Shown here piece after piece: positions 18,379-62,327 of a stretch of 64,000 nt of DNA (positions within the stretch are counted from its first letter, which is position 1; each line of letters opens with the position of its first letter). The DNA is from a virus. The stretch lies in the UHGV virus genome UHGV-0209617; one strand, given 5' to 3'. The notes beneath the pieces are model-generated. The model was not told the origin of the DNA. It saw only the letters and a list, made by a program, of their open reading frames with translations, and did not search any database. The translations under genes and the position numbers were made by a program.

Positions 18379-18418
18379 AAAATCCGCAAGCAGTGATTAT
18401 GCTGTTTGCGGATTTTTT
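18377..18418. terminator. Bidirectional intrinsic terminator between convergent genes
   Basis: AAAAAATCCGCAAGCAG..CTGTTTGCGGATTTTTT, about 15 bp stem with one mismatch, A-run and T-run on either side. Confidence 0.6.
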
Positions 18419-29772: not shown

Positions 29773-30259
29773 TTGGTGCGGGAAAGAATTTGTAAGAGAT
29801 TCTTCCAAATTGAAAGGTAAAAAGCATCACTTTTGTTGCAGACAGTGTCTTGCCGATTTTAGCAATAAGGCAAAGAATCCTAGTGGGTATGCCTCCTTGA
29901 AGGACTTTACAAATATCAGCAAAAATATGACACAGATTAATGAGCGTATGAATCCAAGCAGGATGATGAAGAAAACGAGAAAAAAACTGAGAGAGGCTCA
30001 TCTTGGAAAAGGAGAATGCACTGGGTATTCAAAAATCTACAGTAGGCTTGCACATCGTGTAATTGCAGAGAAAATGTTAGGCAGACCACTTAAACCAGAG
30101 GAAGTAGTGCATCACAGGGATGGAAACAGGTATAACAATATTCCAGAAAACTTGGTCGTGTTCCCTTCGGTTAGTGAGCATTCAAGATTTCATAACGAGT
30201 TTAGATGGTTTCTGCGAGAGTTGGAGAGATTGGAGATGGAGAATGTTGAAACGAAGTGA
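29750..30259 (+). CDS. HNH endonuclease
   Basis: N-terminal zinc-binding CDWCG..CCRQC; HNH core VVHHRDGNRYNNIPENLVVFPSVSEHSRFH. Confidence 0.7.
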   Translation: MKLSIQCDWCGKEFVRDSSKLKGKKHHFCCRQCLADFSNKAKNPSGYASLKDFTNISKNMTQINERMNPSRMMKKTRKKLREAHLGKGECTGYSKIYSRLAHRVIAEKMLGRPLKPEEVVHHRDGNRYNNIPENLVVFPSVSEHSRFHNEFRWFLRELERLEMENVETK

Positions 30260-31625
30260 CCTGCATTATTATCAATCATATTGTGTGGAATACATTAAGC
30301 AAAATCACACTGCTGCAGTTTTATTGGATTGTGGATTAGGAAAAACTTCAATAACTTTGACGGCTCTTGCCGATTTGCTGTTTGACAGCTTCGAGATTCA
30401 TAAGGTTTTGGTTATCGCACCTCTTCGAGTGGCTTCTGTAACATGGAGCGCGGAGATTGAAAAATGGGAGCATTTGAAAATTCTAAAGTATTCCGTGGCA
30501 GTGGGTACCGAAGCAGAAAGGCTGGCGGCACTGAATGCACAGGCAGATATTTATATCATAAACCGAGAAAACGTGCAGTGGCTGATTGAGAAAAGTGGTA
30601 TTCCCTTTGATTTTGATATGCTTGTTGTCGATGAACTGTCAAGTTTCAAGAACCACCAGTCCAAGCGATTCAAGGCACTGATGAAGGTAAGACCAAAAGT
30701 AAAAAGAGCCGTGGGTCTGACAGGTACTCCTTTCAGCAACGGTTTAATGGATTTATTCGCAGAATTTAAACTGCTGGATATGGGAGCAAGGCTTGGCAGA
30801 TTTATCGGTCAATACCGAAATGCCTACTTCTCCCCGGATAAGCGAAACGGTCAGATTATTTACAGTTATAAGCCACTGCCGGATGCTGAACAGCAGATTT
30901 ATGAGAAAATCTCCGATATTACGATTTCCATGAAATCCACGGACCATTTGAAAATGCCGGAGCTGATCAACACGCAGTATGAAGTGGTGCTTTCCAACAA
31001 GGAGCAGGAAAAGTACGAGGAGCTTAAAAAGGATCTGGTGCTGCAGCTTCCAAACGGAGAAATCACAGCCGCCAATGCTGCAAGTCTTACCGGAAAACTG
31101 TCACAGATGGCAAATGGTGCGGTGTATGGGGATGATGAGAAAGTTCTGGAGATACACGAAAAGAAGCTGGATGCTTTGGAGGATATCATTGAAGCCGCAA
31201 ATGGGAAACCGATACTGGTGGCATATTGGTTTAAGCACGATTTGGAACGCATCTGCAGACGGCTGGAGGAACTGAAGGTGGAGTATGCCAGAATATCTTC
31301 TCCCGGCAGTATCGAAATGTGGAACAGAGGTGAGTTTGCAGTAGGTCTTATCCATCCCGCATCAGCTGGTCACGGCTTGAATTTGCAGGCTGGAGGAAGT
31401 ACACTGATATGGTATGGCTTAACCTGGAGCCTTGAACTTTACCAGCAGACCAATGCGAGGCTCTATCGCCAGGGACAGAAGGATACGGTGGTCATTCAGC
31501 ACATCGTGGCTGAAGGCACCATTGATGAAAGAGTCCTTGCTGCTCTTGAAGCAAAGGATAAAACACAGTCAGCACTCATGGATGCCGTGAAAGCTGAACT
31601 TGGAGGTGATGGCTGTGTCGGATAA
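30243..31625 (+). CDS. SNF2/DEAD-like helicase
   Basis: ATG 30243 after GGAGATGGAGA; motif I LDCGLGKTSITL; motif II MLVVDELSSFKN; helicase C-terminal motifs. Confidence 0.8.
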   Translation: MLKRSDLHYYQSYCVEYIKQNHTAAVLLDCGLGKTSITLTALADLLFDSFEIHKVLVIAPLRVASVTWSAEIEKWEHLKILKYSVAVGTEAERLAALNAQADIYIINRENVQWLIEKSGIPFDFDMLVVDELSSFKNHQSKRFKALMKVRPKVKRAVGLTGTPFSNGLMDLFAEFKLLDMGARLGRFIGQYRNAYFSPDKRNGQIIYSYKPLPDAEQQIYEKISDITISMKSTDHLKMPELINTQYEVVLSNKEQEKYEELKKDLVLQLPNGEITAANAASLTGKLSQMANGAVYGDDEKVLEIHEKKLDALEDIIEAANGKPILVAYWFKHDLERICRRLEELKVEYARISSPGSIEMWNRGEFAVGLIHPASAGHGLNLQAGGSTLIWYGLTWSLELYQQTNARLYRQGQKDTVVIQHIVAEGTIDERVLAALEAKDKTQSALMDAVKAELGGDGCVG

Positions 31626-31839
31626 AGGTATAGAAAATCTCCGTAATGCTATCATCCTTCAGGCAGTAAATGATTTGAAGAGAGCGTACAGAAACCTAAA
31701 GAGGAATCCAGACAGCGTACAGCTGAAGGCTGCTGCAGAATACGAGGAGAGGTTCTTCAGTTCCAAATGGTACAAGACCCTTACCACGATTGATGGCAGT
31801 ATGGTGGTAGCCCATGTAAGAGAGGAGGCAGGCTTATGA
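31609..31839 (+). CDS. Hypothetical small protein
   Basis: Tightly packed between helicase and the next gene; no motif. Confidence 0.3.
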   Translation: MAVSDKGIENLRNAIILQAVNDLKRAYRNLKRNPDSVQLKAAAEYEERFFSSKWYKTLTTIDGSMVVAHVREEAGL

Positions 31840-32279
31840 CAGCAAAAGAATACTTGAGTCAGGCATTCCTGCTGAACGAACAGATAAACACAAAGCTTGA
31901 GCAGGTCAGTGCCTTGAGGCATCTTGCCACAAAGACCTGCACACCTATAAACGATATGCCGGGTTCTCCAACAAAGCGTGTTGATGGAATGGAGGAAACC
32001 ATAATCAAGATGGTTACCTTAGAGAATGAAATCAATGCAGACATCGATAAGCTGGTGGATTTGAAGGTTGAAATAACACGGCTCATCAACAAGGTGAGCA
32101 AGGTTGAATGCAGACTGCTCCTGGAGAAAAGATATCTCTGCATGGAAGCATGGGAGGTTATAGCAGCGGGGCTTAATTACAACCTGAGGTATATCCACAA
32201 ACTGCACAGCAAAGCATTATCTTCTTTTGATGAAGTCATGGCAGAATATAAAGTAGACACCAAAGGGCACTATTTGTGA
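31836..32279 (+). CDS. Putative phage late transcriptional activator (ArpU/DUF1492-like, sigma region 4-like)
   Basis: 147 aa; C-terminal RYLCMEAWEVIAAGLNYNLRYIHKLHSKAL is HTH-like; position just upstream of the packaging genes. Confidence 0.45.
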   Translation: MTAKEYLSQAFLLNEQINTKLEQVSALRHLATKTCTPINDMPGSPTKRVDGMEETIIKMVTLENEINADIDKLVDLKVEITRLINKVSKVECRLLLEKRYLCMEAWEVIAAGLNYNLRYIHKLHSKALSSFDEVMAEYKVDTKGHYL

Positions 32280-32382
32280 CTGCCAAACTATAGTATAATG
32301 TAAACTGTGAAAAGAATATAATCATAGAGCCATTGGAGAGCAATCTTCGATGGCTTTTCTTATGCCCGAAAGAGGTGAAGCC

Positions 32383-32754
32383 ATGCCAAGGAAACCAAAG
32401 CGTCCCTGCAGATACAGCGGATGCCCGAAGCTGACAGAAGGATACTATTGCGATGAACATCAGAAGCTAATGGACAGGCAGTACGATAAATACCGCCGCC
32501 CGGCTGAAGCCAAGAAAAGGTATGGCTATCAGTGGAGAAAGATAAGAGCTGCGGTACTGGCAAGAGAGCCGTTCTGTCTGGAGTGCCGAAAGGCTGGAAG
32601 AATAACCAAGGCCACAGAGGTGCATCATGCTGTGCCATTAGACCACGGCGGTACCAACGAGGATAGTAATTTGATACCGCTCTGCAAGCCGTGTCACTCC
32701 CGCATAACTGTGGAGATGGGGGATAGATGGCATAAGAAAAAGCTGCCCATATGA
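32383..32754 (+). CDS. HNH endonuclease (packaging-associated)
   Basis: ATG 32383 with AGAGGTGA upstream; HNH core EVHHAVPLDHGGTNEDSNLIPLCKPCHSRI. Confidence 0.7.
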   Translation: MPRKPKRPCRYSGCPKLTEGYYCDEHQKLMDRQYDKYRRPAEAKKRYGYQWRKIRAAVLAREPFCLECRKAGRITKATEVHHAVPLDHGGTNEDSNLIPLCKPCHSRITVEMGDRWHKKKLPI

Positions 32755-32835: not shown

Positions 32836-33117
32836 TTAAGCATCACCTAATACCTCGTTGCGTAATTCCTTGAATGAAGAATAACGTTTATACTTTTCCG
32901 GATTAGCTTTCATTGTATAGTATTCATTCATGGCATCGAGTGTTTCCGGATTAGGTACTGAACGCTTGATGTCGAAGGGAATGCGCTGTTCACGAACAGC
33001 CTGCCGAAGGAATATTGTGACAGCTGTAGTCAAATCCATACCAAGGTCTGAAAAAAGACTTTGTGCATTGAGCTTCAACTGAGGGTCTAATGCTATGTTT
33101 GTACTTACTTTAGCCAT
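32836..33117 (-). CDS. RelB/DinJ family antitoxin-like protein (orphan)
   Basis: ATG at 33117 with TAGGAGGTG upstream; MAKVSTNIALDPQLKLNAQSLFSDLGMDLTTAVTIFLRQAVREQRIPF is the RelB/DinJ ribbon-helix-helix signature; no toxin ORF in the 80 bp downstream. Confidence 0.65.
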   Translation of the reverse strand: MAKVSTNIALDPQLKLNAQSLFSDLGMDLTTAVTIFLRQAVREQRIPFDIKRSVPNPETLDAMNEYYTMKANPEKYKRYSSFKELRNEVLGDA

Positions 33118-33309
33118 ATCTATGCACCTCCTATTAAGGTTAATTGTAGCATAATATGTGCAAAAAGAAAGCATGACATGCGCATGATAAGCATAAAAAT
33201 AACGGGAGGGGGTGTCTGATTCTCTACAGATGTACAAATGTAGACCGGGGGGCTCCCTTCACGCGCAAAAAAGGCGATTTCAAAAGGGTAAAAGAAGGGA
33301 GGAGTTGGA

Positions 33310-33861
33310 TTGCCAACAAAATCCAACAACACCGGCGGCCGTGGAGGTAAAAGACTAGGTGCCGGACGCAAGAAAAAAGCACTGGCAGACAAGCTGGAAA
33401 CAAATAATCCAGGTGGCCGCCCGCTGGTGGTTTTAGACATACCAGAATTTGAAGGAATGGATATGCCACCGCCCAGGGAATTTCTATCCGCCCAGCAGCG
33501 TGATGGAAGTGACCTGCAAGCAAATGAGATATATGAGGAAACATGGGAGTGGCTGAAGAAAATCGGCATGGCAGGAAAGGTAAGCAAGCAGCTTCTTGAA
33601 CGCTATGCAATGTGCGCTGCCCGCTGGGTGCAGTGCGAGGAAATGACCAGCCGAATGGGTATGCTTTCTAAGCACCCTACAACGGGAAAACCTATCCCAA
33701 GTCCATTCATAAACATCGGGATAAACTACATGAATCAGGCTAACAGGCTGTGGGGAGAAATCTTCCAGCTTGTTAAGGAGAACTGCTCGACAGGCTATGA
33801 GGGAGCCAATCCAACAGACGATGTGATGGAGCGGCTGCTCAGAGCAAGGAGCGGAAGGTAA
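33310..33861 (+). CDS. Terminase small subunit (P27-like)
   Basis: TTG start after GGGAGGAG; Gly/Arg/Lys-rich N-terminus GGRGGKRLGAGRKKK; precedes the packaging region. Confidence 0.55.
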   Translation: MPTKSNNTGGRGGKRLGAGRKKKALADKLETNNPGGRPLVVLDIPEFEGMDMPPPREFLSAQQRDGSDLQANEIYEETWEWLKKIGMAGKVSKQLLERYAMCAARWVQCEEMTSRMGMLSKHPTTGKPIPSPFINIGINYMNQANRLWGEIFQLVKENCSTGYEGANPTDDVMERLLRARSGR

Positions 33862-33906
33862 TATGCTAGTGCAGAATTGTACTGGCTATTTTTTATGGAG
33901 GCAGCA

Positions 33907-35184
33907 ATGGCGAATACAGAACGATTTGAAAAAGTACATATAGACAAGCTGGTGCCCTATGCCAGAAATGCCAGGACACACAGCAAGGAGCAGGTCATGG
34001 AACTGAGAGCGTCCTTAAGGGAGTTCGGATTCGTTACTCCCGTCCTGGTAGATGAAAACTATACAATCCTCGCGGGGCACGGACGTGTCAGGGCTGCAAA
34101 GGAAGAAGGCATTACCGAGGTGCCATGTGTATTTGCGAACCAGCTGACGGATGCACAGAAGAAAGCCTATATCCTAGCAGATAACCGTCTTGCGCTTAAT
34201 GCGGGATGGGATAACGAGATGCTGGCAGTTGAACTGGCTGATCTGCAGGGCGAGGCTTTTGATATCGGCCTTTTGGGATTTGATGACAAGGAGCTGGAGA
34301 AGCTCCTTGGCAATAACGATGAGGCAGAGGATGATGATTTCGATGTTGATGCCGAACTTCAAAAACCATGCTTCAGCCGCCCAGGAGATATCTGGAAACT
34401 CGGCAGGCACAAGGTTATCTGTGGTGACAGCACTGACCCGAATGTTTACACTTCTCTTCTTGGAGATGTGAAAGTAAACCTAGTCTGCACTGACCCGCCG
34501 TATTTTGTAGCCTTCGAGAATAAATCAGGGAAAATCCAGAATGACAATCTGGGTGATGAGGAAGGATATAAATTCCTCAAATCCGCTATGGATAATTTCC
34601 ATAATGCTATGGCAAAGGATGCCAGCATTTATGTGTTTTATGCTACATCCAAAGCCAGGGTATTCCATGATGCTTTTGAGGATGCAGGGTTTAAGGTTGG
34701 AGCAGGACTTGTCTGGAAGAAGGATCGCCTGGTGCTGACCCGCACGGATTGGAAGTACATCCATGAGCCAATTATCTTCGGCTGGCGTAAGGACGGAAAG
34801 CATATCTGGTACGGAGATCAGAAGCAGACTACTGTATTTGAGTTTTCCCGTATCAAGGATTCTGGCAAGGATGGATACGGTCATCCTACCAGCAAGCCTG
34901 TACCTCTCATTGCTTATCTCATTAAGCAGTGCACCCAGACTAACGGTATTGTGCTGGATGGCTTCTTGGGTTCTGCCAGCACCCTTATTGCCTGTGAGCA
35001 GCTTGAAAGAAACTGTTATGGCGTAGAGCTTGAGCCGAAGTTCGTGGATGTGGCTGTAAACAGATACATCGCAGCCCATGATGGCTCCGCCCAGGATGTT
35101 GTCCTTATCCGAGATGGAAAAGAATACAGCTACGAAGAGTCCCAAGCGATGATGGAGGATAGTGCTGAAAATGACGAACAATAA
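33907..35184 (+). CDS. ParB-like nuclease domain fused to DNA methyltransferase (beta class, N4/N6)
   Basis: ATG 33907 with GGAGG upstream; ParB-like N-terminus ILAGHGRVRAAKEEG; methyltransferase motifs CTDPPY and GHPTSKP. Confidence 0.8.
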   Translation: MANTERFEKVHIDKLVPYARNARTHSKEQVMELRASLREFGFVTPVLVDENYTILAGHGRVRAAKEEGITEVPCVFANQLTDAQKKAYILADNRLALNAGWDNEMLAVELADLQGEAFDIGLLGFDDKELEKLLGNNDEAEDDDFDVDAELQKPCFSRPGDIWKLGRHKVICGDSTDPNVYTSLLGDVKVNLVCTDPPYFVAFENKSGKIQNDNLGDEEGYKFLKSAMDNFHNAMAKDASIYVFYATSKARVFHDAFEDAGFKVGAGLVWKKDRLVLTRTDWKYIHEPIIFGWRKDGKHIWYGDQKQTTVFEFSRIKDSGKDGYGHPTSKPVPLIAYLIKQCTQTNGIVLDGFLGSASTLIACEQLERNCYGVELEPKFVDVAVNRYIAAHDGSAQDVVLIRDGKEYSYEESQAMMEDSAENDEQ

Positions 35185-35261
35185 CGGAGTCGATACTTTA
35201 ATCGTTTAAAGTCGAGCCACTAGCTGGTGTGAAAGTCAAAGTATACAGTATCTTCTGCCCT

Positions 35262-35289
35262 AAGAGAGAAAAAGCCGCCCGCAGGCGGC
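35262..35289 (-). terminator. Intrinsic terminator for the minus-strand gene at 35304-35477
   Basis: GCCGCC..GGCGGC hairpin followed on the minus strand by TTTTTCTCTCT. Confidence 0.5.
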
Positions 35290-35303
35290 AGGGAGAAGAT
35301 GAG

Positions 35304-35477
35304 TTATTCTCCGTAGAGAATGAACTTCACATAAGCGGCACGGTCTTCCTCAATGAAGCATACCAGCTCGTAGTAGTGGCTTTCAAAGGCCAGCCGCTGT
35401 ACATAATTGGTATCAAGCATATTGGTCTTGCCGGTGTCCCTGATTGCCAGAATCTGTTCCTTGATTTTCTCTGTCAT
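35304..35477 (-). CDS. Small conserved phage protein (DUF5049-like)
   Basis: 57 aa from ATG 35477 with AAAGGAGG upstream (MTEKIKEQILAIRDTGKTNMLDTNYVQRLAF..); preferred over the overlapping plus-strand ORF 35229-35480. Confidence 0.45.
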   Translation of the reverse strand: MTEKIKEQILAIRDTGKTNMLDTNYVQRLAFESHYYELVCFIEEDRAAYVKFILYGE

Positions 35478-35653
35478 TGAAATGACCTCCTTTGTTTTTG
35501 GTATGTACATATATCACTCTAAAGAGGACAAATAGCAAGTCATTTCTTTGGAATATGTAATAAATATTTTTACAAAAAATATCTACAAAACCCTTGCTAT
35601 TACTGGCGTTTAGAGTGATTAATGTAGTACCGAAATTAAAGGAGGCAAACAAA

Positions 35654-36355
35654 ATGATTTACAAGCTGAAAATGGAAAACGGCACCCGCAAGGAGCTGGC
35701 AAAGGAAATCGGAAAGATTATCGCCCAGGAAGCAAAGTACATGGGAGTTCCAAGCTGCGGCTACAGGATCGGGGACATGGTCTTGGATAAGGATTGGAAC
35801 CTTGAGGTTCCGGATGGCATGGATGCGCGGGAGCTTCTGATGGCACTAACAGACCTTGGCTTCTACGAGCCGAAGGAAGAAATACCCGCAAAGACAGAAG
35901 AAGAGCCAACACAGGCGGCCACAGCCCCTCTTACGGGTCTTGTGGTAAAGATTCCGCTGAGTGCCATGACCACGGAAGCAATCATAAACCTTACGGATTT
36001 GCTTATCGCAAAGGACAAGCTGCTCTGCCACGCATTTGGCATAGAAAGCCTTGACCTTATCCGAAACGAGGAGAACATAGAGTTCAGATGGTTTGAAGGG
36101 ATGGATATCGGAGCGGAGGAAGCCAATGCTTACATGACCTTTATTTCCAAGCTCTGCGATTTGGCAAGAACCCTCAAGAGGGTAAACGGTAAGGAAAAAG
36201 AAGTGCCGAATGAGAAATACGCCTTCAGATGTTTCCTGCTGAGACTTGGCTTTGTCGGCAAGGAATACAAGGAGCAGAGAAAAATCCTTTTAAGTAAGCT
36301 CAGCGGTTCATCCGCATTCAGGGATGGGAGGAAAAAAGATGAAGTATCCGAATAA
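35654..36355 (+). CDS. Hypothetical protein sharing a ~40 aa C-terminal module with the amidoligase
   Basis: ATG 35654 with GGAGG upstream; C-terminus NEKYAFRCFLLRLGFVGKEYKEQRKILLSKLSGSSAFR aligns with amidoligase C-terminus [38 protein letters not shown]. Confidence 0.5.
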   Translation: MIYKLKMENGTRKELAKEIGKIIAQEAKYMGVPSCGYRIGDMVLDKDWNLEVPDGMDARELLMALTDLGFYEPKEEIPAKTEEEPTQAATAPLTGLVVKIPLSAMTTEAIINLTDLLIAKDKLLCHAFGIESLDLIRNEENIEFRWFEGMDIGAEEANAYMTFISKLCDLARTLKRVNGKEKEVPNEKYAFRCFLLRLGFVGKEYKEQRKILLSKLSGSSAFRDGRKKDEVSE

Positions 36356-36557
36356 GGAATTGCTGGAAAGTCTCAGAAAGGAATACCCAAATGGGTGCAG
36401 GGTGGAGCTGGTGCAGATGGATGATGCACAGGCACCGCCGCCCGGCACGAAGGGAACGGTAAAGCACGTGGATGATATCGGCACCATCCATATCAGCTGG
36501 GATACCGGCTCAGGACTTGGGGCGGTTTACGGTGAAGATATCATCAGAAAGGTCTAA
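36339..36557 (+). CDS. Small phage protein (DUF4314-like)
   Basis: 72 aa from ATG 36339 with GGGAGG upstream; pattern GTKGTVKHVDDIGTIHISWDTGSGL. Confidence 0.4.
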   Translation: MKYPNKELLESLRKEYPNGCRVELVQMDDAQAPPPGTKGTVKHVDDIGTIHISWDTGSGLGAVYGEDIIRKV

Positions 36558-36632
36558 TGGAAAGGCGGGGATAAAACCCCGCCAGCCCAGTAAAATAGTG
36601 TAAAAATAATCCATAAATCTCGCATAAATGAC

Positions 36633-36661
36633 TTGATAATAATACAGATGTACGGTAATAT
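36633..36661 (+). promoter_or_regulatory. Consensus-like sigma-A promoter, copy 1 of a duplicated ~48 bp element
   Basis: -35 TTGATA, 17 nt spacer, -10 TAATAT, then ACACACAAC(A/G)AAAGGG; near-identical copy at 38201-38229. Confidence 0.5.
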
Positions 36662-36710
36662 ACACACAACAAAAGGGAACACCCCACCAAGAGAAAGCGA
36701 GGAAAACAAA

Positions 36711-37598
36711 ATGGATTTAAGAGCACAGACCTTCGGAGTAGAGATTGAGATGACCGGCCTTACAAGAAACAGGGCCGCAAAGGTAATCGCCGCATACTTC
36801 GGAACGGAGGCAACCTACTTCGGAGGCGGATACGATGAGCACCACGCAAAGGACAGCAAGGGCAGAATCTGGAAGGCCATGAGCGATTCAAGCATCAGGG
36901 CAGAAAAGAAGGACGGCTCCTACGCAAGCGACCTTTACAAGACCGAGGTGGTAACCCCAATCCTCAGATACGAGGACATTGAAGACCTACAGGAAATCCT
37001 GAGAAAGCTCAGAAAGGCAGGGGCGATGGTAAACAGCAGCACAGGGATTCACATCCACATCGGAGCGGAGAATTTCACCCCGGCTACCCTTTGCAACCTT
37101 CTGAAGAACATCCGAAGCAAGGAGGACATTCTTTACAGAGCCATTCAGGTCAAGGAAAACCGCGCAAGGTACTGCAGAAAAACAAACCAGAAGCTCATCG
37201 AGATGATTGAGGCACACCGCCCCAAGACAAAGGAGCAGCTTGCAGACCTTTGGTATGCAGAAGCACCATACGGAAGAAACAGGCATTACAACGACAGCAG
37301 ATACCACGGACTTAACCTCCACGCATACTTCACTAAGGGAACGGTCGAGTTCAGGCTTTTCAACAGCACCCTCCACGCAGGCGAATTGAAAGCCTACATA
37401 CAGTTCTGCATGGCGGTTACAGCAAAGGCCATAAACACCAAGAAGGCAAGCGCGAAGCCAAGCATCAGCGACAACGAAAAATACACTTTCAGATGCTGGC
37501 TCCTCCGCCTGGGCCTTAACGGAGAAGAATTCAAGACCTGCAGAACCCACCTTTTGAAGCACCTCGAAGGAAACAGCGCCTGGAGGCACCTTTCCTAA
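36711..37598 (+). CDS. Amidoligase (Amidoligase_2 / glutamine synthetase-like)
   Basis: 295 aa from ATG 36711; motifs FGVEIEMTG, GIHIHIG, VEFRLFNSTLH. Confidence 0.6.
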   Translation: MDLRAQTFGVEIEMTGLTRNRAAKVIAAYFGTEATYFGGGYDEHHAKDSKGRIWKAMSDSSIRAEKKDGSYASDLYKTEVVTPILRYEDIEDLQEILRKLRKAGAMVNSSTGIHIHIGAENFTPATLCNLLKNIRSKEDILYRAIQVKENRARYCRKTNQKLIEMIEAHRPKTKEQLADLWYAEAPYGRNRHYNDSRYHGLNLHAYFTKGTVEFRLFNSTLHAGELKAYIQFCMAVTAKAINTKKASAKPSISDNEKYTFRCWLLRLGLNGEEFKTCRTHLLKHLEGNSAWRHLS

Positions 37599-37610
37599 AA
37601 CAAACCGGCC

Positions 37611-37643
37611 TACCAGCCCCGAAAGGGGCCTTTCGGTGGTAGA
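37611..37643 (+). other. GC-rich hairpin element after amidoligase gene
   Basis: CTACCAGCCCCGAAAGGGGCCTTTCGGTGGTAG; related element at 38467-38506; no U-tract. Confidence 0.35.
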
Positions 37644-37695
37644 AGCACCTAGCTTCTGAATAAACCGATTTGCTTTAGGAAGGGAGTCTTCAACA

Positions 37696-38154
37696 ATGAA
37701 AAGAAAAATCTATCTGGCCTACGGAAGCAACATGAGCCTTTTGCAGATGTACCACCGTTGCCCTGATGCAGAACCGATTGGCAAGGGCATCATCAAGGAT
37801 TACCGCCTGATGTTTAAGGGAAGTAAGAGTGGCAACTATGCGACCATCGAATACGAGGAAGGACGGCAGGTGCCTGTGGTAGCCTGGGCAATCAGTGAAA
37901 GGGATGAAAAATGCCTTGACCGCTATGAAGGATTTCCGAGCTTTTATGTGAAGGACACCATCGCATTTGAATATATCGGTGATCGCCCAGGAAGAAGGAT
38001 GAAGGATGAGGGCATGGTTTATGTGATGCCGCCAGATGAGACTGTTCTGGGGCTTCCAAGTGGTCACTACATGGATGTCCTTCTTGAAGGCTACCATCGC
38101 TTCGGATTTAATTCCAGAATCCTTTGGGAAGCCTACGAATACAGCGATGAGTGA
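37696..38154 (+). CDS. Gamma-glutamyl cyclotransferase-like protein (GGCT/AIG2 fold)
   Basis: N-terminal IYLAYGSNMSLLQM (YGSNM signature); 152 aa; directly follows the amidoligase. Confidence 0.6.
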   Translation: MKRKIYLAYGSNMSLLQMYHRCPDAEPIGKGIIKDYRLMFKGSKSGNYATIEYEEGRQVPVVAWAISERDEKCLDRYEGFPSFYVKDTIAFEYIGDRPGRRMKDEGMVYVMPPDETVLGLPSGHYMDVLLEGYHRFGFNSRILWEAYEYSDE

Positions 38155-38200
38155 GCCGATAAAGTATACAAAAATATCCTCCGAATGTGTGAAGTATAAC

Positions 38201-38229
38201 TTGATATAAGTACGAATGTACGGTAATAT
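38201..38229 (+). promoter_or_regulatory. Consensus-like sigma-A promoter, copy 2 of duplicated element
   Basis: -35 TTGATA, 17 nt spacer, -10 TAATAT; same downstream leader as copy 1. Confidence 0.5.
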
Positions 38230-38277
38230 ACACACAACGAAAGGGGAACAGCCCTAAAGCAAAAGGAGGAAACCACA

Positions 38278-38457
38278 ATGACAAAGAAGGAAAGCGCAAG
38301 GATTTTAGAGATTGCAAAGAAGTACATTTACGCAATCGAAGTGAGAGGGAGCCTTGAGATGATGCAGTCCGACAGCGATGACTTCATCGAAACCTCGGTC
38401 GGCAGCATCGAGGCAGCCCTTGAAGCGGCCTACAGAGCAGGCAAGGCCGCAAGATAA
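38278..38457 (+). CDS. Small hypothetical protein (59 aa, not in ORF track)
   Basis: ATG 38278 preceded by AAAAGGAGGAAA; MTKKESARILEIAKKYIYAIEVRGSLEMMQSDSDDFIETSVGSIEAALEAAYRAGKAAR; driven by promoter copy 2. Confidence 0.4.
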   Translation: MTKKESARILEIAKKYIYAIEVRGSLEMMQSDSDDFIETSVGSIEAALEAAYRAGKAAR

Positions 38458-38466
38458 CAAAGAAAA

Positions 38467-38506
38467 GCCGGAAGGACCTCGGAAGGGGGCCTTTTGGTCG
38501 TGGTAG
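38467..38506 (+). other. GC-rich hairpin element after small gene (relative of 37611-37643)
   Basis: GCCGGAAGGACCTCGGAAGGGGGCCTTTTGGTCGTGGTAG. Confidence 0.3.
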
Positions 38507-38578
38507 CATAAATAGACTTTACAAGTTCCCAACTACACCATGTTAAAGTATCGGCTCCGATGGGAGCTTCATATCTAA

Positions 38579-38600
38579 CCGCCTCTGGGCGGATTTTTTT
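38579..38600 (+). terminator. Short hairpin plus T-run just upstream of terminase large subunit
   Basis: CCGCC TCTG GGCGG followed by ATTTTTTT. Confidence 0.4.
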
Positions 38601-38619
38601 ATGTCTGGAAGTGAGAGAA

Positions 38620-40227
38620 ATGGCAATAAGGAAACTGAAAAAATACATACCGACAAAATTCATGTCTGAAGACAGCCATTATGATAAGGGGGCGGCTGAC
38701 TATGCCGTAGCATTTATTGAAGCCTTATGCCATACCAAGGGAACTTGGGCAGGTAAGCCTTTTGAGCTAATCGATTGGCAGGAACAGATTATTCGTGACC
38801 TTTTTGGTATCCTAAAGCCAAATGGATATAGGCAGTTTAATACAGCCTATGTTGAAATACCCAAAAAGCAAGGAAAATCTGAGCTGGCAGCGGCCGTTGC
38901 AATCCTTTTAACCTGCGGTGATGGTGAGGAACGTGCGGAGGTTTATGGCTGTGCTGCAGACCGGCAACAGGCATCCATTGTTTTTGATGTTGCTGCGGAT
39001 ATGGTCAGTATGTGTCCTGCTTTAGCCAAGCGCGTAAAAATACAGAAATCTATGAAGCGCATGATATATCTTCCTACGAACAGCTTCTACCAGGTGCTTT
39101 CGGCAGAGGCCTATTCAAAGCATGGCTTCAATATCCATGGTGTTATCTTTGATGAGCTTCATACCCAGCCAGACCGCAAGCTGTATGATGTAATGACCAA
39201 AGGCTCCGGCGATGCAAGAATGCAGCCGATGTATTTTAATATAACTACAGCAGGGACGGATACTCATTCCATATGCTACGAAATACATCAGAAGGCAAAG
39301 GATATTATTGCTGGGCGGAAGATTGATACAACCTTCTATCCTGTGATTTATGGTGCGGATGAAGGAGAGGATTGGACTTCTCCAGAAGTGTGGAAGAAGG
39401 CAAATCCGTCTCTTGGCATTACTGTTGGCATGGATAAGGTTGAAGTTGCTTGTGAGTCTGCAAGGCAGAATCCAGGGGAAGAAAATGCTTTTCGCCAACT
39501 TCGTCTTAACCAATGGGTAAAGCAGTCGGTTCGTTGGATGCCTATGGAAAAATGGGATGAGTGCAGCTTCAAAGTTAACCCTGATGACCTAGAAGGACGC
39601 GTATGCTATGGAGGTCTTGACCTATCCAGCACCACAGATATAACAGCCTTTGTATTGGTGTTTCCTCCGGAGGATGAGGAGGATAAATATCATATACTGC
39701 CTTATTTCTGGATACCGGAGGAAACAATGGATCTTCGTGTAAAGCGTGACCATGTGCCCTATGATATCTGGCATAAGCAGGGATTCCTTGAAACCACCGA
39801 AGGCAATGTAGTCCACTATGGCTACATCGAGAAATTCATTGAATCCCTCGGTGAAAAATATAATATCCGTGAGATTGCCTTTGATAGATGGGGTGCGACA
39901 CAGATGGTGCAGAATCTTGAGGGCATGGGATTTACTGTTGTTCCCTTTGGACAAGGTTACAAGGATATGAGTCCGCCAACCAAGGAGCTGATGAAGCTGA
40001 CCCTTGAAAAGAAACTGGCTCATGGCGGTCATCCAGTTCTGAGGTGGATGGCAGACAATATCTTCATCCGAAGGGATCCCGCTGGGAACATCAAGGCAGA
40101 CAAAGAAAAGTCCACAGAGAAGATTGACGGTGTCATAGCCACCATAATGGGGCTGGACAGAGCAATTCGCTGTGGATTGAATTCTGGAGATTCCGTTTAT
40201 GATGGGCGAGGAATTTTGTTAATATAA
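38620..40227 (+). CDS. Phage terminase large subunit
   Basis: 535 aa from ATG 38620; ATPase region AYVEIPKKQGKSELAAA and VIFDELH (Walker B-like); C-terminal nuclease half. Confidence 0.9.
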   Translation: MAIRKLKKYIPTKFMSEDSHYDKGAADYAVAFIEALCHTKGTWAGKPFELIDWQEQIIRDLFGILKPNGYRQFNTAYVEIPKKQGKSELAAAVAILLTCGDGEERAEVYGCAADRQQASIVFDVAADMVSMCPALAKRVKIQKSMKRMIYLPTNSFYQVLSAEAYSKHGFNIHGVIFDELHTQPDRKLYDVMTKGSGDARMQPMYFNITTAGTDTHSICYEIHQKAKDIIAGRKIDTTFYPVIYGADEGEDWTSPEVWKKANPSLGITVGMDKVEVACESARQNPGEENAFRQLRLNQWVKQSVRWMPMEKWDECSFKVNPDDLEGRVCYGGLDLSSTTDITAFVLVFPPEDEEDKYHILPYFWIPEETMDLRVKRDHVPYDIWHKQGFLETTEGNVVHYGYIEKFIESLGEKYNIREIAFDRWGATQMVQNLEGMGFTVVPFGQGYKDMSPPTKELMKLTLEKKLAHGGHPVLRWMADNIFIRRDPAGNIKADKEKSTEKIDGVIATIMGLDRAIRCGLNSGDSVYDGRGILLI

Positions 40228-40287
40228 ATTATAGGTTGAATATATCCTAGAGATGGTATATAATAGCCATGAAAGGAGATGATACCT

Positions 40288-40530
40288 ATGATGGTTGATA
40301 CTAATAATCTTGTTTCAATAACTGAGGCAAACCAGAATTTTTCAAAGGTCGCTCGTATGGTAGATGAGTCAGGTTCTGTTGTAATCCTAAAAAATAATGT
40401 ACCTAAATATTTAGTAGTTAATTTTGATGTGGCTGATAGCGTGGATTATACTTCAGATGAAGAGCTGCTCATGGTATCAGATAAATTTATGAAGAAAAAT
40501 AAAAAGGCGTATGAGGTATTGGCAAAATGA
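40288..40530 (+). CDS. phd: Phd/YefM family antitoxin
   Basis: ATG 40288 with AAAGGAG 9 nt upstream; VSITEANQNFSKVARMVDESGSVVILKNNVPKYLVV; stop overlaps the doc start (ATGA). Confidence 0.7.
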   Translation: MMVDTNNLVSITEANQNFSKVARMVDESGSVVILKNNVPKYLVVNFDVADSVDYTSDEELLMVSDKFMKKNKKAYEVLAK

Positions 40531-40901
40531 AGCGAATATCTAAACGTCAGGTATTATTGCTGCATAATAAGCTGATAGAGGAAAGTGGCGGCTCTGATGG
40601 TATCAGGGAAGATGGACTCTTGGAATCAGCTTTGAATGCGCCTTACCATGAGTTTGCAGGTTTTTCAAACTATCCCACGATAGAAGAAAAAGCTGCCAGG
40701 CTCGGTTATGGTATAATCAAGAACCATCCATTTGTTGATGGGAATAAAAGAATTGGTACCCATATTATGCTTCTGCTTTTGTATATCAATGGTGTTGAGT
40801 TGGTATATGAACAGGAGGAGCTGATAGACATAATTCTACAAGTTGCATCAGGACAAGCTGATTATGAAGAGTTATATGCTTGGGTTTTAGATCATGAATA
40901 A
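40527..40901 (+). CDS. doc: Doc (death-on-curing) toxin, Fic family
   Basis: Fic/Doc active-site motif HPFVDGNKRIG; 124 aa; coupled to upstream phd. Confidence 0.8.
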   Translation: MKRISKRQVLLLHNKLIEESGGSDGIREDGLLESALNAPYHEFAGFSNYPTIEEKAARLGYGIIKNHPFVDGNKRIGTHIMLLLLYINGVELVYEQEELIDIILQVASGQADYEELYAWVLDHE

Positions 40902-40946
40902 CAAGGGTGTTGCCGTAATGGTAACGCCTATTTTTATGGAGGAAAA

Positions 40947-42224
40947 ATGAATATATTTACAAAACTTTTCAAGTCGAGGGATAAGCCGACCAACTATCTG
41001 GGCGGTTTATCCTTTTTATTTGGTCAGACTGCAGCCGGTAAGCCGGTTAATGAGAAGTCTGCCATGCAGGTAACAGCAGTTTATGCCTGTGTCAGAATTT
41101 TGGCAGAATCCATAGCAGGGCTGCCGCTTCATGTGTATAGGTACAATTCGGGTGGCGGCAAGGAAATGGTGACAGACCATAATCTGTACCGCATCCTGCA
41201 TGATGAGCCTAATCCGGATATGACAAGCTTCATATTTAGGGAAACACTGATGAGCCATCTTCTCTTGTGGGGTAATGCCTATGCACAGATTATTCGTGAT
41301 CATGCTGGCAGGATGATAGGGCTGTATCCTTTACTTCCAGATAAGGTAGAGGTAGATAGGGACAGCAGCACCGGTGAAATCTTCTATACCTATACCAAAA
41401 GCACAGACGAAAATCCGAACTTCAAGCAGGGCGGACAGATAAGGCTTAACAAGAATGCTGTACTTCATATTCCAGGTCTTGGCTTTGATGGACTTGTAGG
41501 ATATAGTCCTATTGCCATGGCGAAAAATGCTGTAGGTATTGCTCTTGCCACCGAAGAATATGGTGCTACCTTCTTTGCTAACGGTGCAACACCGGGCGGT
41601 ATCTTAGAGCACCCTGGTGTGGTAAAAGACCCAGAACGTCTACGTCAGAGCTGGCAGAGTCAGTTTGGGCAGAAGAACAGCCACAGGGTAGCTGTGCTGG
41701 AAGAAGGCATGACCTTTCACCAGATGACCATACCGCCAGAAGAAGCACAGTTCCTGGAAACAAGGAAGTTTCAGATTGATGAGATTGCCCGTATTTTCAG
41801 GGTACCGCCACACATGGTAGGTGACCTTGAAAAATCCAGCTTCTCTAATATTGAGCAGCAGAGCCTTGAGTTTGTGAAATACACACTGAACCCTTGGGTT
41901 ATCCGCTGGGAGCAGGCCCTTCAGAAAGCACTCCTTACAGATAAGGAAAAGGGCGAGTATTTCGTAAAGTTCAACGTGGATGGACTTCTCCGTGGTGACT
42001 ACCAGAGCCGTATGAACGGCTACGCCATTGGGCGGCAGAATGGCTGGTTTTCAGCCAATGACATCAGGGAAATGGAGAACCTAAATCCAATACCTGATGA
42101 AGAAGGTGGAAATCTCTATCTTATTAATGGCAATATGACAAAATTAAAGGATGCTGGCCTTTTTGCCGGTCAGCAGAAAGGAAAAGAAAATGAAGAGAAA
42201 GTTTTGGAACTGGGTGCGAAATGA
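40947..42224 (+). CDS. Phage portal protein
   Basis: 425 aa; conserved QVTAVYACVRILAESIAGLPL, FIFRETLMSHLLLWGNAYAQII; position after terminase. Confidence 0.9.
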   Translation: MNIFTKLFKSRDKPTNYLGGLSFLFGQTAAGKPVNEKSAMQVTAVYACVRILAESIAGLPLHVYRYNSGGGKEMVTDHNLYRILHDEPNPDMTSFIFRETLMSHLLLWGNAYAQIIRDHAGRMIGLYPLLPDKVEVDRDSSTGEIFYTYTKSTDENPNFKQGGQIRLNKNAVLHIPGLGFDGLVGYSPIAMAKNAVGIALATEEYGATFFANGATPGGILEHPGVVKDPERLRQSWQSQFGQKNSHRVAVLEEGMTFHQMTIPPEEAQFLETRKFQIDEIARIFRVPPHMVGDLEKSSFSNIEQQSLEFVKYTLNPWVIRWEQALQKALLTDKEKGEYFVKFNVDGLLRGDYQSRMNGYAIGRQNGWFSANDIREMENLNPIPDEEGGNLYLINGNMTKLKDAGLFAGQQKGKENEEKVLELGAK

Positions 42225-61949: not shown

Positions 61950-62327
61950 ATGACAGAAGTAGAGAAGAAAAGAATAAAGGAGCTTCATTATCAGGGGCTG
62001 GGATATCGGAAGATTGCTGCCGAACTTGGCATGTCCCCTAATACTGTGAAATATGTAACCAAGAATCTGGTAGCTACGGATAATCATACCTGCAGGAACT
62101 GCGGCATCAAAGTTTTACAGACAGCAGGACGCAAGGAGAAGAAGTTCTGTTCAGATAAATGCCGTATGGATTGGTGGAACAGCCATCTCGATACTGTTAA
62201 TCGCAAGGGATATAAGACCTTTACCTGTAAATGCTGCAGTAAGGAATTCATGGCTTATGCCAGGACAGGCAGGAAATACTGCAGCCGGGAATGTTATTTC
62301 AAGGCTAGATATGGAGGTGCAAGATGA
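61950..62327 (+). CDS. HTH (sigma region 4-like) plus Cys-rich zinc-finger regulator of recombination module
   Basis: N-terminal KRIKELHYQGLGYRKIAAELGMSPNTVKY; C-terminal cysteine pairs CRNCG, CSDKC, CKCC, CSREC. Confidence 0.5.
   Translation: MTEVEKKRIKELHYQGLGYRKIAAELGMSPNTVKYVTKNLVATDNHTCRNCGIKVLQTAGRKEKKFCSDKCRMDWWNSHLDTVNRKGYKTFTCKCCSKEFMAYARTGRKYCSRECYFKARYGGAR

Follow-up and report, generated by a model that had tools for sequence, protein, structure and literature searches.

The small and large terminase genes (TerS and TerL) of virus UHGV-0209617 lie 4758 bp apart, TerS stop to TerL start, in the 64,000-nucleotide stretch analyzed here (the window). We consider it probable that this split arose once, through replacement or relocation of TerS across an older DNA-modification island, and that the window carries a Ca. 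Heliusvirales-type prophage with the layout of the clade carrying a divergent small terminase, TerS_A. The original prediction had put the separation at ~4.7 kb, which agrees with our measurement, and all of the intervening genes that it named are present, at the given coordinates or at most a few tens of bases away from them. The region is organized as follows.

31836–32279, plus strand: 147-aa transcriptional-regulator-like protein, two genes 5′ of TerS (phrog_36 "transcriptional regulator," E = 6.8e-18)
32350–32754, plus strand: HNH endonuclease of the packaging-associated type (Pfam HNH, E = 2.2e-12; phrog_144, E = 6e-37)
32836–33117, minus strand: RelB/DinJ-like orphan antitoxin gene between HNH and TerS (PF04221 RelB; phrog_2737)
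33204–33291, plus strand: conserved noncoding element directly 5′ of TerS_A, including the 24-mer AAAAAGGCGATTTCAAAAGGGTAA (33268–33291)
33310–33861, plus strand: TerS_A, divergent P27-family small terminase (PF05119; phrog_83)
33907–35184, plus strand: ParB_N and N6_N4_Mtase fusion (PF02195 and PF01555; phrog_498, E = 5.6e-168)
35289–35274, minus strand: terminator-like hairpin just 3′ of the DUF5049 gene on its own strand
35304–35477, minus strand: DUF5049 gene (PF16468, E = 8.9e-28)
35654–36355, plus strand: 233-aa member of a "virulence protein" family, an amidoligase-related paralogue (no match in Pfam)
36339–36557, plus strand: DUF4314 protein (PF14192, E = 2.3e-32)
36628–36677, plus strand: promoter-like 50-nt element, copy 1 (TTGATA-17-TAATAT), upstream of the Amidoligase_2 gene
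36711–37598, plus strand: Amidoligase_2 enzyme (PF12224, E = 5.4e-70)
37696–38154, plus strand: GGACT/AIG2-like gamma-glutamyl cyclotransferase (PF06094, E = 7.6e-11; phrog_2520, E = 2.8e-41)
38196–38245, plus strand: promoter-like 50-nt element, copy 2, upstream of DUF6900
38278–38457, plus strand: DUF6900 small protein (PF21841, E = 9.4e-17)
38579–38600, plus strand: GC-rich, terminator-like hairpin and T-run, 20 nt 5′ of the TerL start
38620–40227, plus strand: TerL, large terminase subunit (TerL_ATPase and TerL_nuclease, PF03354 and PF20441; phrog_9, E = 2.9e-189)
40236–40929, plus strand: Phd-Doc toxin–antitoxin cassette between TerL and portal (Phd, 40288–40530; Doc, 40527–40901)
40947–42224, plus strand: portal protein, start of the head module (PF04860 on an identical gene)

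The split is common to the TerS_A lineage

Among 33 phage records carrying the TerS_A type (type A), both genes could be placed in 29, and in all 29 a distance of 3.3 to 9.5 kb separates TerS_A from a downstream TerL with 76 to 85% identity to that of the window. This identity is 80 to 85% for most Ca. Heliusvirales type-A records and for Streptococcus, Gardnerella, and Erysipelothrix phages, which together with NatCom_991 provide annotated examples of the split. TerS_A is likewise upstream of TerL in 82 IMG/VR and GTDB loci (gap of 0.5–9.2 kb in the IMG/VR and GTDB set, 0–9.5 kb overall). The core content of these intervals consists of the ParB-methyltransferase, the best-conserved island member (92% of 83 unique TerS_A-to-TerL intervals), the p253/amidoligase family (88%), DUF4314 (60–93%; 76 of 82 related intervals by tblastn), and GGACT (48%), with SAM synthetase, C5 methyltransferase, Nmad4, and others as optional genes. 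Most island genes and their order are common to more than 75 type-A loci, and a gene order identical to that of this phage recurs on at least 24 independent metagenome contigs; this recurrence, with the same architecture in >80 related loci, bears out the view that the arrangement is evidently functional. One locus among the 82, L139, lacks the island, and its TerS_A abuts TerL; this is more simply explained as a deletion, and the island looks dispensable for packaging if the L139 element is viable.

Sister lineages and the direction of change

Sister Heliusvirales and streptococcal phages with a canonical P27 small terminase, TerS_B (type B), include Coprococcus phage NatCom_29765 (PV036442), Blautia phage NatCom_2932, and Streptococcus phage Javan244. 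They resemble the window in replication-to-packaging synteny, in the island between HNH and the terminase genes, in a hairpin/T-run/RBS junction, and in a TerL that is 63 to 74% identical (tblastn), but they show no split, their TerS_B (TIGR01558, 102 bits) overlapping TerL, and the 24-mer is not found in type-B loci. In all five type-B loci, the island lies between HNH and the adjacent TerS_B–TerL pair, in the same order. Four of the five hold the ParB-methyltransferase (43–47% identity where present in type B), an amidoligase-family protein, the amidoligase, GGACT, and in part DUF4314; the fifth, Javan244, has a reduced island in which only methyltransferases and DUF4314 match. Since the same island occupies the same locus in type B, where TerS and TerL are still adjacent, the island predates the split.

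A neighbor-joining TerL tree, calculated without bootstrap support from 70 unique type-A sequences and five type-B loci and rooted on the single outgroup Dragolir, in which TerS and TerL are adjacent, places all type-A sequences in one clade inside a paraphyletic type B. This rough tree would make the split type a single derived clade, and we infer the direction of change, from adjacent to split, from such sequence comparisons. The two small subunits are mutually exclusive (TerS_A in 81 loci, TerS_B in five, none with both and none with neither), and a 151-aa protein (phrog_2308) is confined to type B, where it occupies the post-HNH slot held by TerS_A in type A.

The junction in front of TerL reads hairpin, T-run, "TTATGCCA," GGAGGTGA. 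An equivalent junction precedes TerL in 58 of 67 unique type-A loci, its hairpin and T-run mostly 14 to 34 nt away, and TerS_B in five of five type-B loci; the junction before TerL is homologous to that before TerS_B. In the window, hairpin 38579–38600 sits at this conserved border, which separates the island from the structural operon. A terminator-like hairpin directly before TerL is hard to square with a simple single late operon.

Movement of TerS across the island and movement of the island across TerS give an identical end state. The two are told apart, indirectly, by the divergence of TerS_A from TerS_B (~24% identity) versus that of TerL between the two layouts (about 70%), by the exclusivity of the 151-aa protein, and by the junction homology.

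Proposed serial insertion, and local additions

An unlikely alternative is that TerS and TerL were adjacent in a recent ancestor and that independent cassettes, each with its own signals, were then inserted one by one. The variable interval length and the many optional genes fit this reading, as does L139 with its TerS_A next to TerL, a single exception for which deletion is the simpler explanation. The amidoligase is closest to genes of differently organized phages, which points to exchange: its best matches in phage records are type-B Blautia/Faecalimonas phages (62% identity), and it is 81% identical to a gene in Anaerovibrio prophages. Most of the island genes, and their order, are nonetheless found in more than 75 type-A and four of five type-B loci, in the latter outside the TerS–TerL pair, and the homologous junctions and the apparent monophyly of type A also speak against piecemeal insertion.

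Signals around the individual genes had been cited in favor of such insertion, and here the picture is divided. Terminator-like hairpins are in excess (28 found versus 13.5 ± 3.6 expected), one of them following the minus-strand DUF5049 gene, and the promoter-like 50-nt element is duplicated as direct repeat D1, its two copies being 86% identical; sigma-70-like matches, on the other hand, are at or below chance expectation (17 found versus 23 ± 4 expected). The transcription units drawn from these signals are predictions. Overall, repeated invasion of a normally adjacent pair in this particular phage is not supported: relatives with TerS_A share the split, an outcome of the comparison with related phages that the original prediction itself had named as counting against it, and the island is already present in type B.

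The RelB-like gene, the inverted DUF5049 gene, and the Phd-Doc cassette are real local additions or rearrangements in this phage. The first, for which the PF04221 match is taken from the identical gene in L165–L169, carries a promoter-like site (33179–33151) and a terminator-like hairpin (32761–32740) on its own strand, and at the HNH–TerS position it has no match in 82 related loci, being found there, among the loci compared, only in this phage. DUF5049 is inverted and displaced here and is on the plus strand in the 35 related loci that have it inside the interval. The Phd-Doc cassette (PF02604/PF02661 in Pfam; Doc matches the phrog_577 Doc-like toxin, E = 1.6e-36) is preceded by the best promoter match of the region (40236–40264, 10/12), is followed by a terminator-like hairpin (40905–40929), and has a GC content of 0.37 to 0.39 versus 0.45 to 0.50 nearby. 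In Javan191, DinJ-Doc occupies this TerL–portal slot, and in phi1605 the gene found there encodes an aminoglycoside nucleotidyltransferase.

Identity of TerS_A and its upstream element

Profile searches agree with the original assignment of 33310–33861 as a small-terminase homologue, the sole one in the window. Pfam Terminase_4 (PF05119) scores 27.8 bits, above its cut-off of 24.7, the phrog_83 profile "terminase small subunit" matches with E = 1.2e-33, and hhalign pairs the protein with the canonical P27 TerS profile at 97.1% probability over 152 columns. TerS_A shares with canonical P27 TerS a basic GRK...GNPG motif at the N terminus and a D.ME.LL tail at the C terminus, and NCBI lists its relatives under the name "P27 family phage terminase small subunit." Homology and its standing as sole candidate in the window suggest that it functions as the small subunit.

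That 33310–33861 is instead a paralogue that binds DNA for some other purpose, such as one within the modification island, with packaging left to TerL and HNH alone or to an unrecognized small subunit, seems to us quite improbable. The Pfam score clears its cut-off by little, TIGR01558, a stricter equivalog model from NCBIfam, is not matched, and no relative is detectable among solved structures; the homology to canonical P27 TerS, however, extends over the full length. Tight coupling of the gene to a methyltransferase or SAM-synthetase gene, with ~10-nt spacing in many loci, and the terminator-like boundary between it and TerL would suit a role in modification, but the presence of exactly one of TerS_A and TerS_B at each locus is the pattern of functional replacement, and no second TerS homologue or other TerS-like ORF was found in the 64-kb window. 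The gene also adjoins HNH and the conserved element, as TerS does in Dragolir; in HK97, TerS likewise adjoins HNH.

HNH precedes TerS_A by ~1 kb in nearly all relatives, and the element at 33204–33291 is conserved at ≥90% across 137 unique upstream sequences. The 24-mer occurs once per TerS_A locus, 19 to 75 nt before the start codon, and among 117 viral stretches picked by the 24-mer alone, TerS_A follows immediately in 110, with no room for it in the other seven. By analogy with Paenibacillus phage Dragolir, the genome end of which falls between HNH and TerS, the element is probably a cos or TerS recognition region, here considered putative; it could alternatively be a late promoter or leader. 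The product of 31836–32279 is a candidate ArpU/RinA-like or sigma-like late regulator, and a Gardnerella phage gene at the same position (33% identity to the 147-aa protein) is annotated "RNA polymerase subunit sigma-70."

Finally, it is hardly credible that the prophage is decaying or chimeric, or that misassembly joined an unrelated segment between the terminase genes: the prophage in the window is surrounded by bacterial DNA (integrase-sized ORF at 18417–19601) and has mosaic best matches for TerS, TerL, methyltransferase, and amidoligase, but every ORF is intact, GC content and GC skew are smooth across 33 to 40 kb, the at least 24 contigs with the same order come from different samples, and the architecture also occurs in isolate genomes and in records deposited as complete phage genomes.

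Relation to known systems

Phage and plasmid gene neighborhoods combining Amidoligase_2 and GGACT were reportedly described by Iyer, Abhiman, Burroughs, and Aravind in Mol Biosyst in 2009. Prophages of Clostridium clostridioforme LM41 (PMC11318856) provide further examples, and the window, in which profile searches find two phrog_2443 amidoligase-family genes and a phrog_2520 GGACT, resembles these temperate Clostridia phages, RelB-type genes included. Such reports list these genes as accessory, metabolic, or defense genes of predicted function and, unlike the present analysis, do not locate them relative to the terminase genes.

One close match in layout is the Acutalibacteraceae phage NatCom_991 (PV036413; Ca. 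Heliusvirales), with TerL 83% and TerS 79% identical to those of the window and a shared order of helicase, small genes, HNH, TerS, methyltransferase(s), amidoligase-related protein, DUF4314, amidoligase, GGACT, TerL, small genes, and portal. Its interval, however, is 8.3 kb long and includes an additional SAM-synthetase-like gene as well as a large C5 methyltransferase. NatCom_991 has neither the RelB insertion nor the DUF5049 inversion, and its TerS is deposited as "hypothetical protein." Ca. Heliusvirales gut phages are described by de Jonge et al. (Nat Commun 2024, PMC11283538); a term search of the text of that paper returns no mention of amidoligase genes or of terminase layout.

HK97-like, HNH-dependent cos packaging (Kala et al. 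2014; Quiles-Puchalt et al. 2014, as cited in PMC12967558) offers the broader frame. Modules of this kind, and Dragolir as the nearest ICTV-classified relative, share with the window an HNH beside the terminase, a P27-type TerS, a TerL with PF03354 and PF20441, and HK97-type portal, protease, and capsid. In those phages the two terminase genes are contiguous, whereas the window has 4.8 kb of accessory genes and a terminator-like hairpin between them, and its cos is putative.

A model for the split

In the scenario that we favor, replacement or relocation of TerS, the window carries a prophage of Ca. Heliusvirales type, an HK97-like temperate siphovirus whose terminase is HNH-dependent. The layout of its large sub-lineage is HNH, element (probable cos), TerS_A, DNA-modification island, hairpin/T-run, TerL, portal, and head genes, and the sister lineages have the island at the same place followed by TerS_B overlapping TerL, with the unrelated 151-aa protein beside HNH. 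The change most likely happened once, in an ancestor common to the TerS_A clade: TerS_B would have been lost from the hairpin–RBS junction before TerL, and a distantly related TerS, with its recognition DNA, would have taken over from the HNH-side position; the two genes need not be neighbors because both proteins assemble in trans. Island content turns over through recombination, and in this phage the three small cassettes (RelB, inverted DUF5049, and Phd-Doc) are further additions or rearrangements.

The interval can fairly be called a hot spot for accessory genes, and the gene flux is real. The split itself is an old inherited arrangement, common to a lineage of gut and streptococcal phages, rather than a recent invasion, and in this sense the layout is an ordinary yet informative finding.

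Gene organization around the terminase genes

The two terminase genes of the window are separated by 4758 bp on the open reading frame (ORF) map with profile searches, so that the original prediction was accurate both on their being apart and on the cargo listed between them. This departs from the usual signature of a P27-family small terminase, which lies immediately upstream of or overlaps the large terminase TerL; the corresponding gap in relatives is 0 to 9.5 kb. We refer to the small terminase at 33310–33861 as TerS_A, to loci in which it is split from TerL as type A, and to the accessory genes between them as the island.

Genes from the SNF2 helicase to the portal (coordinates, strand, product and, where applicable, basis)
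30120–31625, +, SNF2 helicase (ORF map and profile searches)
ending at 32279, +, two small genes after the SNF2 helicase, the second (31836–32279) a phrog_36 transcriptional-regulator-like protein
32350–32754, +, HNH endonuclease (profile searches)
32836–33117, −, RelB/DinJ-like gene (profile searches)
33310–33861, +, P27-type small terminase, TerS_A (profile searches)
33907–35184, +, ParB_N plus N6/N4 methyltransferase (profile searches)
35304–35477, −, DUF5049 (profile searches)
35654–36355, +, 233-aa amidoligase-related protein, p253
36339–36557, +, DUF4314 (profile searches)
36711–37598, +, Amidoligase_2 (PF12224, E = 5.4e-70)
37696–38154, +, GGACT (PF06094, E = 7.6e-11)
38278–38457, +, DUF6900 (profile searches)
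38620–40227, +, TerL (PF03354 and PF20441)
40288–40901, +, Phd-Doc (profile searches)
40947–42224, +, portal (PF04860), with the HK97-type head and tail module onward

The HNH gene lies 555 nt upstream of TerS_A, and TerL is followed by the portal (PF04860), CLP_protease, Phage_capsid (PF05065) and HK97-gp10_like genes. An HNH gene beside the terminase genes is thus combined with HK97-type TerL, portal, protease and capsid, the gene set of an HNH-dependent module of the HK97/phi12 type. Except for DUF5049, the genes between TerS_A and TerL are co-oriented, overlap or are spaced by ≈45 to 165 nt, and are conserved as a block.

TerS_A is a divergent P27-family protein

The identity of 33310–33861 as the small subunit, on which the original prediction depended, held up in profile searches. 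TerS_A passes Pfam PF05119 (Terminase_4) marginally (27.8 bits against a cut-off of 24.7, residues 71–149) and matches phrog_83 strongly (E = 1.2e-33); a precomputed PF05119 match is found on most of its close homologues, several of which are named "P27 family phage terminase small subunit" by NCBI. Alignment of the TerS_A profile with that of canonical P27 TerS in hhalign gives 97.1% probability (E = 7e-11, 152 aligned columns), and the two share an N-terminal basic GRK..GNPG.R.L motif, a central Y..ARW..E motif and a C-terminal D.ME.LL motif. The window protein has no match at E ≤ 0.01 to the stricter equivalog TIGR01558, on which the canonical TerS of the sister phage PV036442 scores 102 bits (cut-off 45.6), and it therefore represents a divergent branch rather than a typical member. 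Sequence and profile searches of TerS_A against solved structures returned chance matches only (E > 1), and no second TerS-like sequence is found across the 64-kb window. We conclude that TerS_A is a divergent yet genuine member of the P27 small terminase family, with its function predicted from homology.

The split layout is shared by a large clade

Homologues of TerS_A at 45 to 79% identity occur in 33 phage records, which include Ca. Heliusvirales gut phages, Streptococcus "Javan" prophages, Gardnerella vB_Gva_AB1, Erysipelothrix phi1605 and Terrisporobacter TPDSL_ph1. TerS_A lies 3.3 to 9.5 kb upstream of TerL in all 29 of the records for which TerL coordinates are listed, with the same gene order in the annotated examples. 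Scans of IMG/VR and GTDB species genomes added 160 TerS_A loci, and in the 82 with enough downstream sequence for TerL the gap is 0.5 to 9.2 kb. Seven further loci extend a full 10 kb past TerS_A and show no TerL; in these, either the gap exceeds 10 kb or TerL lies elsewhere. The original prediction held that an ancestrally adjacent pair had been repeatedly invaded; given a split in 29 of 29 phage records and in 82 further loci, this is not the best explanation, and the layout is instead a plan inherited throughout a large clade, itself part of a described phage order. At least 24 metagenome contigs carry precisely the gene order seen here, RelB and the minus-strand DUF5049 included, so the phage is circulating and presumably viable, in agreement with the earlier view that the arrangement is functional.

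The phage order concerned is Ca. Heliusvirales, whose authors base membership on a TerL within the heliusvirus clade (PMC11283538). The window TerL is 76 to 85% identical to those of the deposited type-A records and falls, in a neighbor-joining tree, among type-A Ca. Heliusvirales and related IMG/VR sequences; the markers seen in the window (portal, Clp-type protease, capsid and SNF2 helicase) are 56 to 74% identical to those of relatives.

A few loci stand apart. On the bacterial bin contig CAVEAL010000018.1 (locus L139, 10001–12131), TerS_A abuts TerL without an island, and upstream of TerS_A lie a 378-aa ORF on the minus strand and one of 2296 aa, with no HNH match; this may be a deletion derivative or a different element type that borrowed the terminase pair. 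Four TerS_A loci (L106, L145, L117 and P0028) come from bins labelled Bacteroidaceae, Succinivibrio, Collinsella and Muribaculaceae, the remaining hosts being Bacillota, and are likely mis-binned phage contigs rather than a real host range.

Sister phages and the origin of the split

Sister loci, termed type B, are found in Ca. Heliusvirales of Coprococcus, Blautia, Agathobacter, Faecalimonas and others and in Streptococcus phage Javan244, and differ from type A in that a canonical TerS (TerS_B) overlaps TerL. A homologous island lies directly upstream of this pair, in the order ParB-methyltransferase, C5 methyltransferase, p253-like protein, DUF4314, amidoligase and GGACT, and a 151-aa phrog_2308 protein is encoded between HNH and the methyltransferase. 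Proteins of the TerS_B type are found in 498 phage records from many hosts, directly upstream of TerL in the loci and records examined. Each of 86 TerL-bearing loci has exactly one type of TerS (TerS_A in 81, TerS_B in five), and the 151-aa gene accompanies TerS_B only. Elsewhere in the window, a 125-aa ORF at 61950–62327 (+) is 33% identical (E = 8e-25) to this phrog_2308 protein, so that the phage does have a homologue, at the far right end of the prophage.

As outgroup we used the Paenibacillus phage Dragolir, which the Heliusvirales authors name as the nearest ICTV-classified relative (PMC11283538); here, TerS and TerL are contiguous at the left genome end and the HNH gene is at the right end. 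With Dragolir as root, type B is paraphyletic and encloses the 70 unique type-A TerL sequences as a single clade in a neighbor-joining tree that carries no support values and samples type B from five loci. Identity between TerS_A and TerS_B is ≈24%, compared with ≈70% for TerL. The split layout thus most likely arose by a single replacement or relocation of TerS across an island that was already in place. On the simplest reading of this tree, with its few type-B loci, and of the hairpin junction that both types share (below), TerS_B would have been lost from its position in front of TerL, and TerS_A, a distant homologue of TerS_B, would have taken over from the slot adjoining HNH.

Island content

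We clustered the ORFs of 83 non-identical TerS_A–TerL intervals; the recurrent families are all on the plus strand, apart from a few DUF7698 calls.

Gene families in 83 non-identical TerS_A–TerL intervals (share of intervals)
ParB-methyltransferase, 92%
p253/amidoligase family, 88%
DUF4314, 60% by strict clustering (76 of 82 by tblastn)
C5 cytosine methyltransferase, 57%
SAM-synthetase-like protein, 51%
GGACT, 48%
DUF7678, 29%
Nmad4, 23%
DUF5049, 22%
DUF7698, 19%
DUF6809, 14%
HNH_3 homing endonuclease, 11%
PAPS-reductase-like protein, 6%

Predicted DNA modification functions predominate in the island, namely N6/N4 and C5 methyltransferases, SAM synthetase, Nmad4 and the PAPS-reductase-like protein. 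With these genes placed just before the structural genes, it is plausible that progeny DNA is modified ahead of packaging. The Amidoligase_2 and GGACT domains (PF12224 and PF06094), both predicted enzymes, are encoded side by side. Over its C-terminal 83 residues, p253 shows 42% identity with the amidoligase C terminus; p253 also matches the amidoligase PHROG, and its AF2 model (pLDDT 78) only weakly resembles ligases, among them Dop and glutamate-cysteine ligase, which share a glutamine-synthetase-like fold. We conclude that p253 is probably a degenerate amidoligase paralogue. More than 7900 homologues are detectable for the 233-aa family to which 35654–36355 belongs, annotated as "virulence protein" (homologues P0121–P0240), and no Pfam model covers it; the family has only its C-terminal ≈85 residues in common with Amidoligase_2 proteins. 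These are very common, uncharacterized phage proteins.

A conserved hairpin precedes the terminase–portal block

Of 67 unique type-A loci, 58 have a GC-rich hairpin ahead of TerL, followed by a T-run, "TTATGCCA" and finally GGAGGTGA, and the same arrangement precedes TerS_B in five of five type-B loci. In both types, the hairpin and T-run lie mostly 14 to 34 nt 5′ of the first gene of the terminase–portal block; in the window they occupy 38579–38600, 20 nt before TerL. Stem sequences differ freely between phages while pairing is kept, as judged from hairpins detected sequence by sequence, a MAFFT alignment of the region being too gappy for a formal covariation count. Such variation is more in keeping with a structural element than with a site cleaved in a sequence-specific manner, and a cos (packaging) site at this hairpin is unlikely. 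A terminator at the head of a structural operon is unexpected. The arrangement suggests that the island and TerS_A belong to a gene block ending at the hairpin and that TerL heads the structural block.

The original prediction also gave each intervening gene its own promoter or terminator signals, which is borne out only in part. Between 29.5 and 43 kb, terminator-like hairpins number 28 against 13.5 expected, about double, whereas sigma-70-like matches are not enriched (17 against 23 in shuffled sequence).

Terminator-like hairpins following individual genes
32761–32740, −, after RelB
35289–35274, −, after DUF5049, on its own strand
36564–36583, after DUF4314
40905–40929, after Doc

A promoter-like element is duplicated before two genes, as a 50-nt direct repeat (86% identical) with a good −35/−10 pattern (TTGATA-17-TAATAT) at 36628–36677 before the amidoligase gene and 38196–38245 before DUF6900, and a Veillonellaceae prophage (L125) has a further copy 5′ of its amidoligase gene; from its sequence, the repeat may be an internal promoter giving expression independent of the late operon. 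An Rfam scan of 32.3 to 41 kb found nothing significant (the top match, OmrA-B, scored 25 bits, the gathering score being 40).

A conserved element upstream of TerS_A is a candidate packaging site

The ≈90 nt 5′ of TerS_A are conserved across 137 unique sequences, and more than 130 distinct phages, with TerS proteins just 70 to 80% identical, retain this element at the nucleotide level. Within it, the 24-mer AAAAAGGCGAnnTCAAAAGGGTAA occurs once in the window (33268–33291) and once per type-A locus, 19 to 75 nt 5′ of the start codon, and is absent from type-B loci. The exact 24-mer is found in at least 120 IMG/VR contigs; among 117 viral stretches picked solely by it, TerS_A lies directly 3′ in 110, and the other seven leave no room for the gene.

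The physical genome end of Dragolir falls 10 nt past the HNH stop and 51 nt 5′ of TerS, and by analogy the element is most likely the cos packaging region read by TerS_A. This assignment places candidate cos ends at ≈33.20 to 33.23 kb, at the junction GGGAGGGGGTGTCTG/ATTCTCTAC. A common homologous base (AAATCTC) in the HNH–TerS region is the start of two contigs; overall, contig starts 5′ of TerS are scattered over 26 to 242 nt upstream, with no pile-up between HNH and TerS, and contigs ending downstream stop within coding sequence and do not accumulate at the hairpin that precedes TerL. An alternative is that the element is a late promoter or leader.

An extension of the cos reading, which we regard as improbable, is that TerS_A and the element form a portable packaging-specificity module (cos plus reader) that displaced both the ancestral TerS beside TerL and an HTH/zinc-ribbon gene beside HNH and so switched the packaging specificity of the lineage from a non-adjacent site. 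If this were true, the start of packaging would be coupled through transcription to DNA modification rather than to head assembly, since TerS_A lies with the methyltransferase, SAM-synthetase and amidoligase genes upstream of the terminator-like boundary. Still more speculatively, the amidoligase, GGACT, p253 and DUF4314 set would modify DNA or a packaging protein.

Additions specific to this phage

The true "invasions" are RelB, the DUF5049 rearrangement and Phd-Doc, of which only DUF5049 lies between TerS and TerL, and none made the gap. The RelB-like gene, on the minus strand with promoter-like and terminator-like sites of its own, sits between HNH and the conserved element, which the HNH stop abuts in the relatives whose sequence was inspected; RelB could act against host toxin–antitoxin defenses. 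This RelB/DinJ-type antitoxin gene (32836–33117, −) is an orphan, with no toxin gene adjoining. DUF5049 is inverted and moved ahead of p253; the 35 relatives with DUF5049 inside the interval have it on the plus strand. Phd-Doc alone combines the attributes of a moron, namely its own promoter-like site (the best match of the region, 10/12, at 40236–40264), its own terminator-like hairpin (40905–40929) and deviating base composition (GC 0.37–0.39). The TerL–portal slot is a second hot spot for accessory genes, within the packaging/head module: Streptococcus phage Javan191 has DinJ-Doc there, and Erysipelothrix phage phi1605 a gene for an aminoglycoside nucleotidyltransferase.

A 17-nt inverted repeat (35185–35201/38543–38559, 16 of 17 complementary), brackets the block from DUF5049 to DUF6900, one arm following the methyltransferase stop directly and the other lying shortly ahead of the TerL region, and occurs in no related locus. 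By our own estimate, ≈0.1 such pairs would arise by chance. The repeat is not evidence of a mobile cassette.

Implications

Term searches of the Heliusvirales paper (PMC11283538) returned no mention of amidoligase genes or terminase layout, and neither the Heliusvirales papers, nor a C. clostridioforme prophage paper (PMC11318856), nor keyword searches yielded any discussion of this terminase split. TerS_A is labelled "hypothetical protein" in most deposited genomes of this widespread gut-phage lineage because it is divergent and not beside TerL, and pipelines or packaging-type predictors that expect terS next to terL will overlook it. Describing the layout is therefore of modest value, as term searches did not find it in the Heliusvirales paper and its TerS_A is mostly unannotated. 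The split is close to known biology and leaves the accepted view of how terminase works unchanged. The element 5′ of TerS becomes a candidate packaging site, and the hairpin 5′ of TerL a candidate transcription boundary. Non-adjacent terminase genes are here the mark of an old, stable genome plan, and the block between them is better seen as an accessory island built around DNA modification that ends the preceding gene block, rather than as a set of recent intruders.
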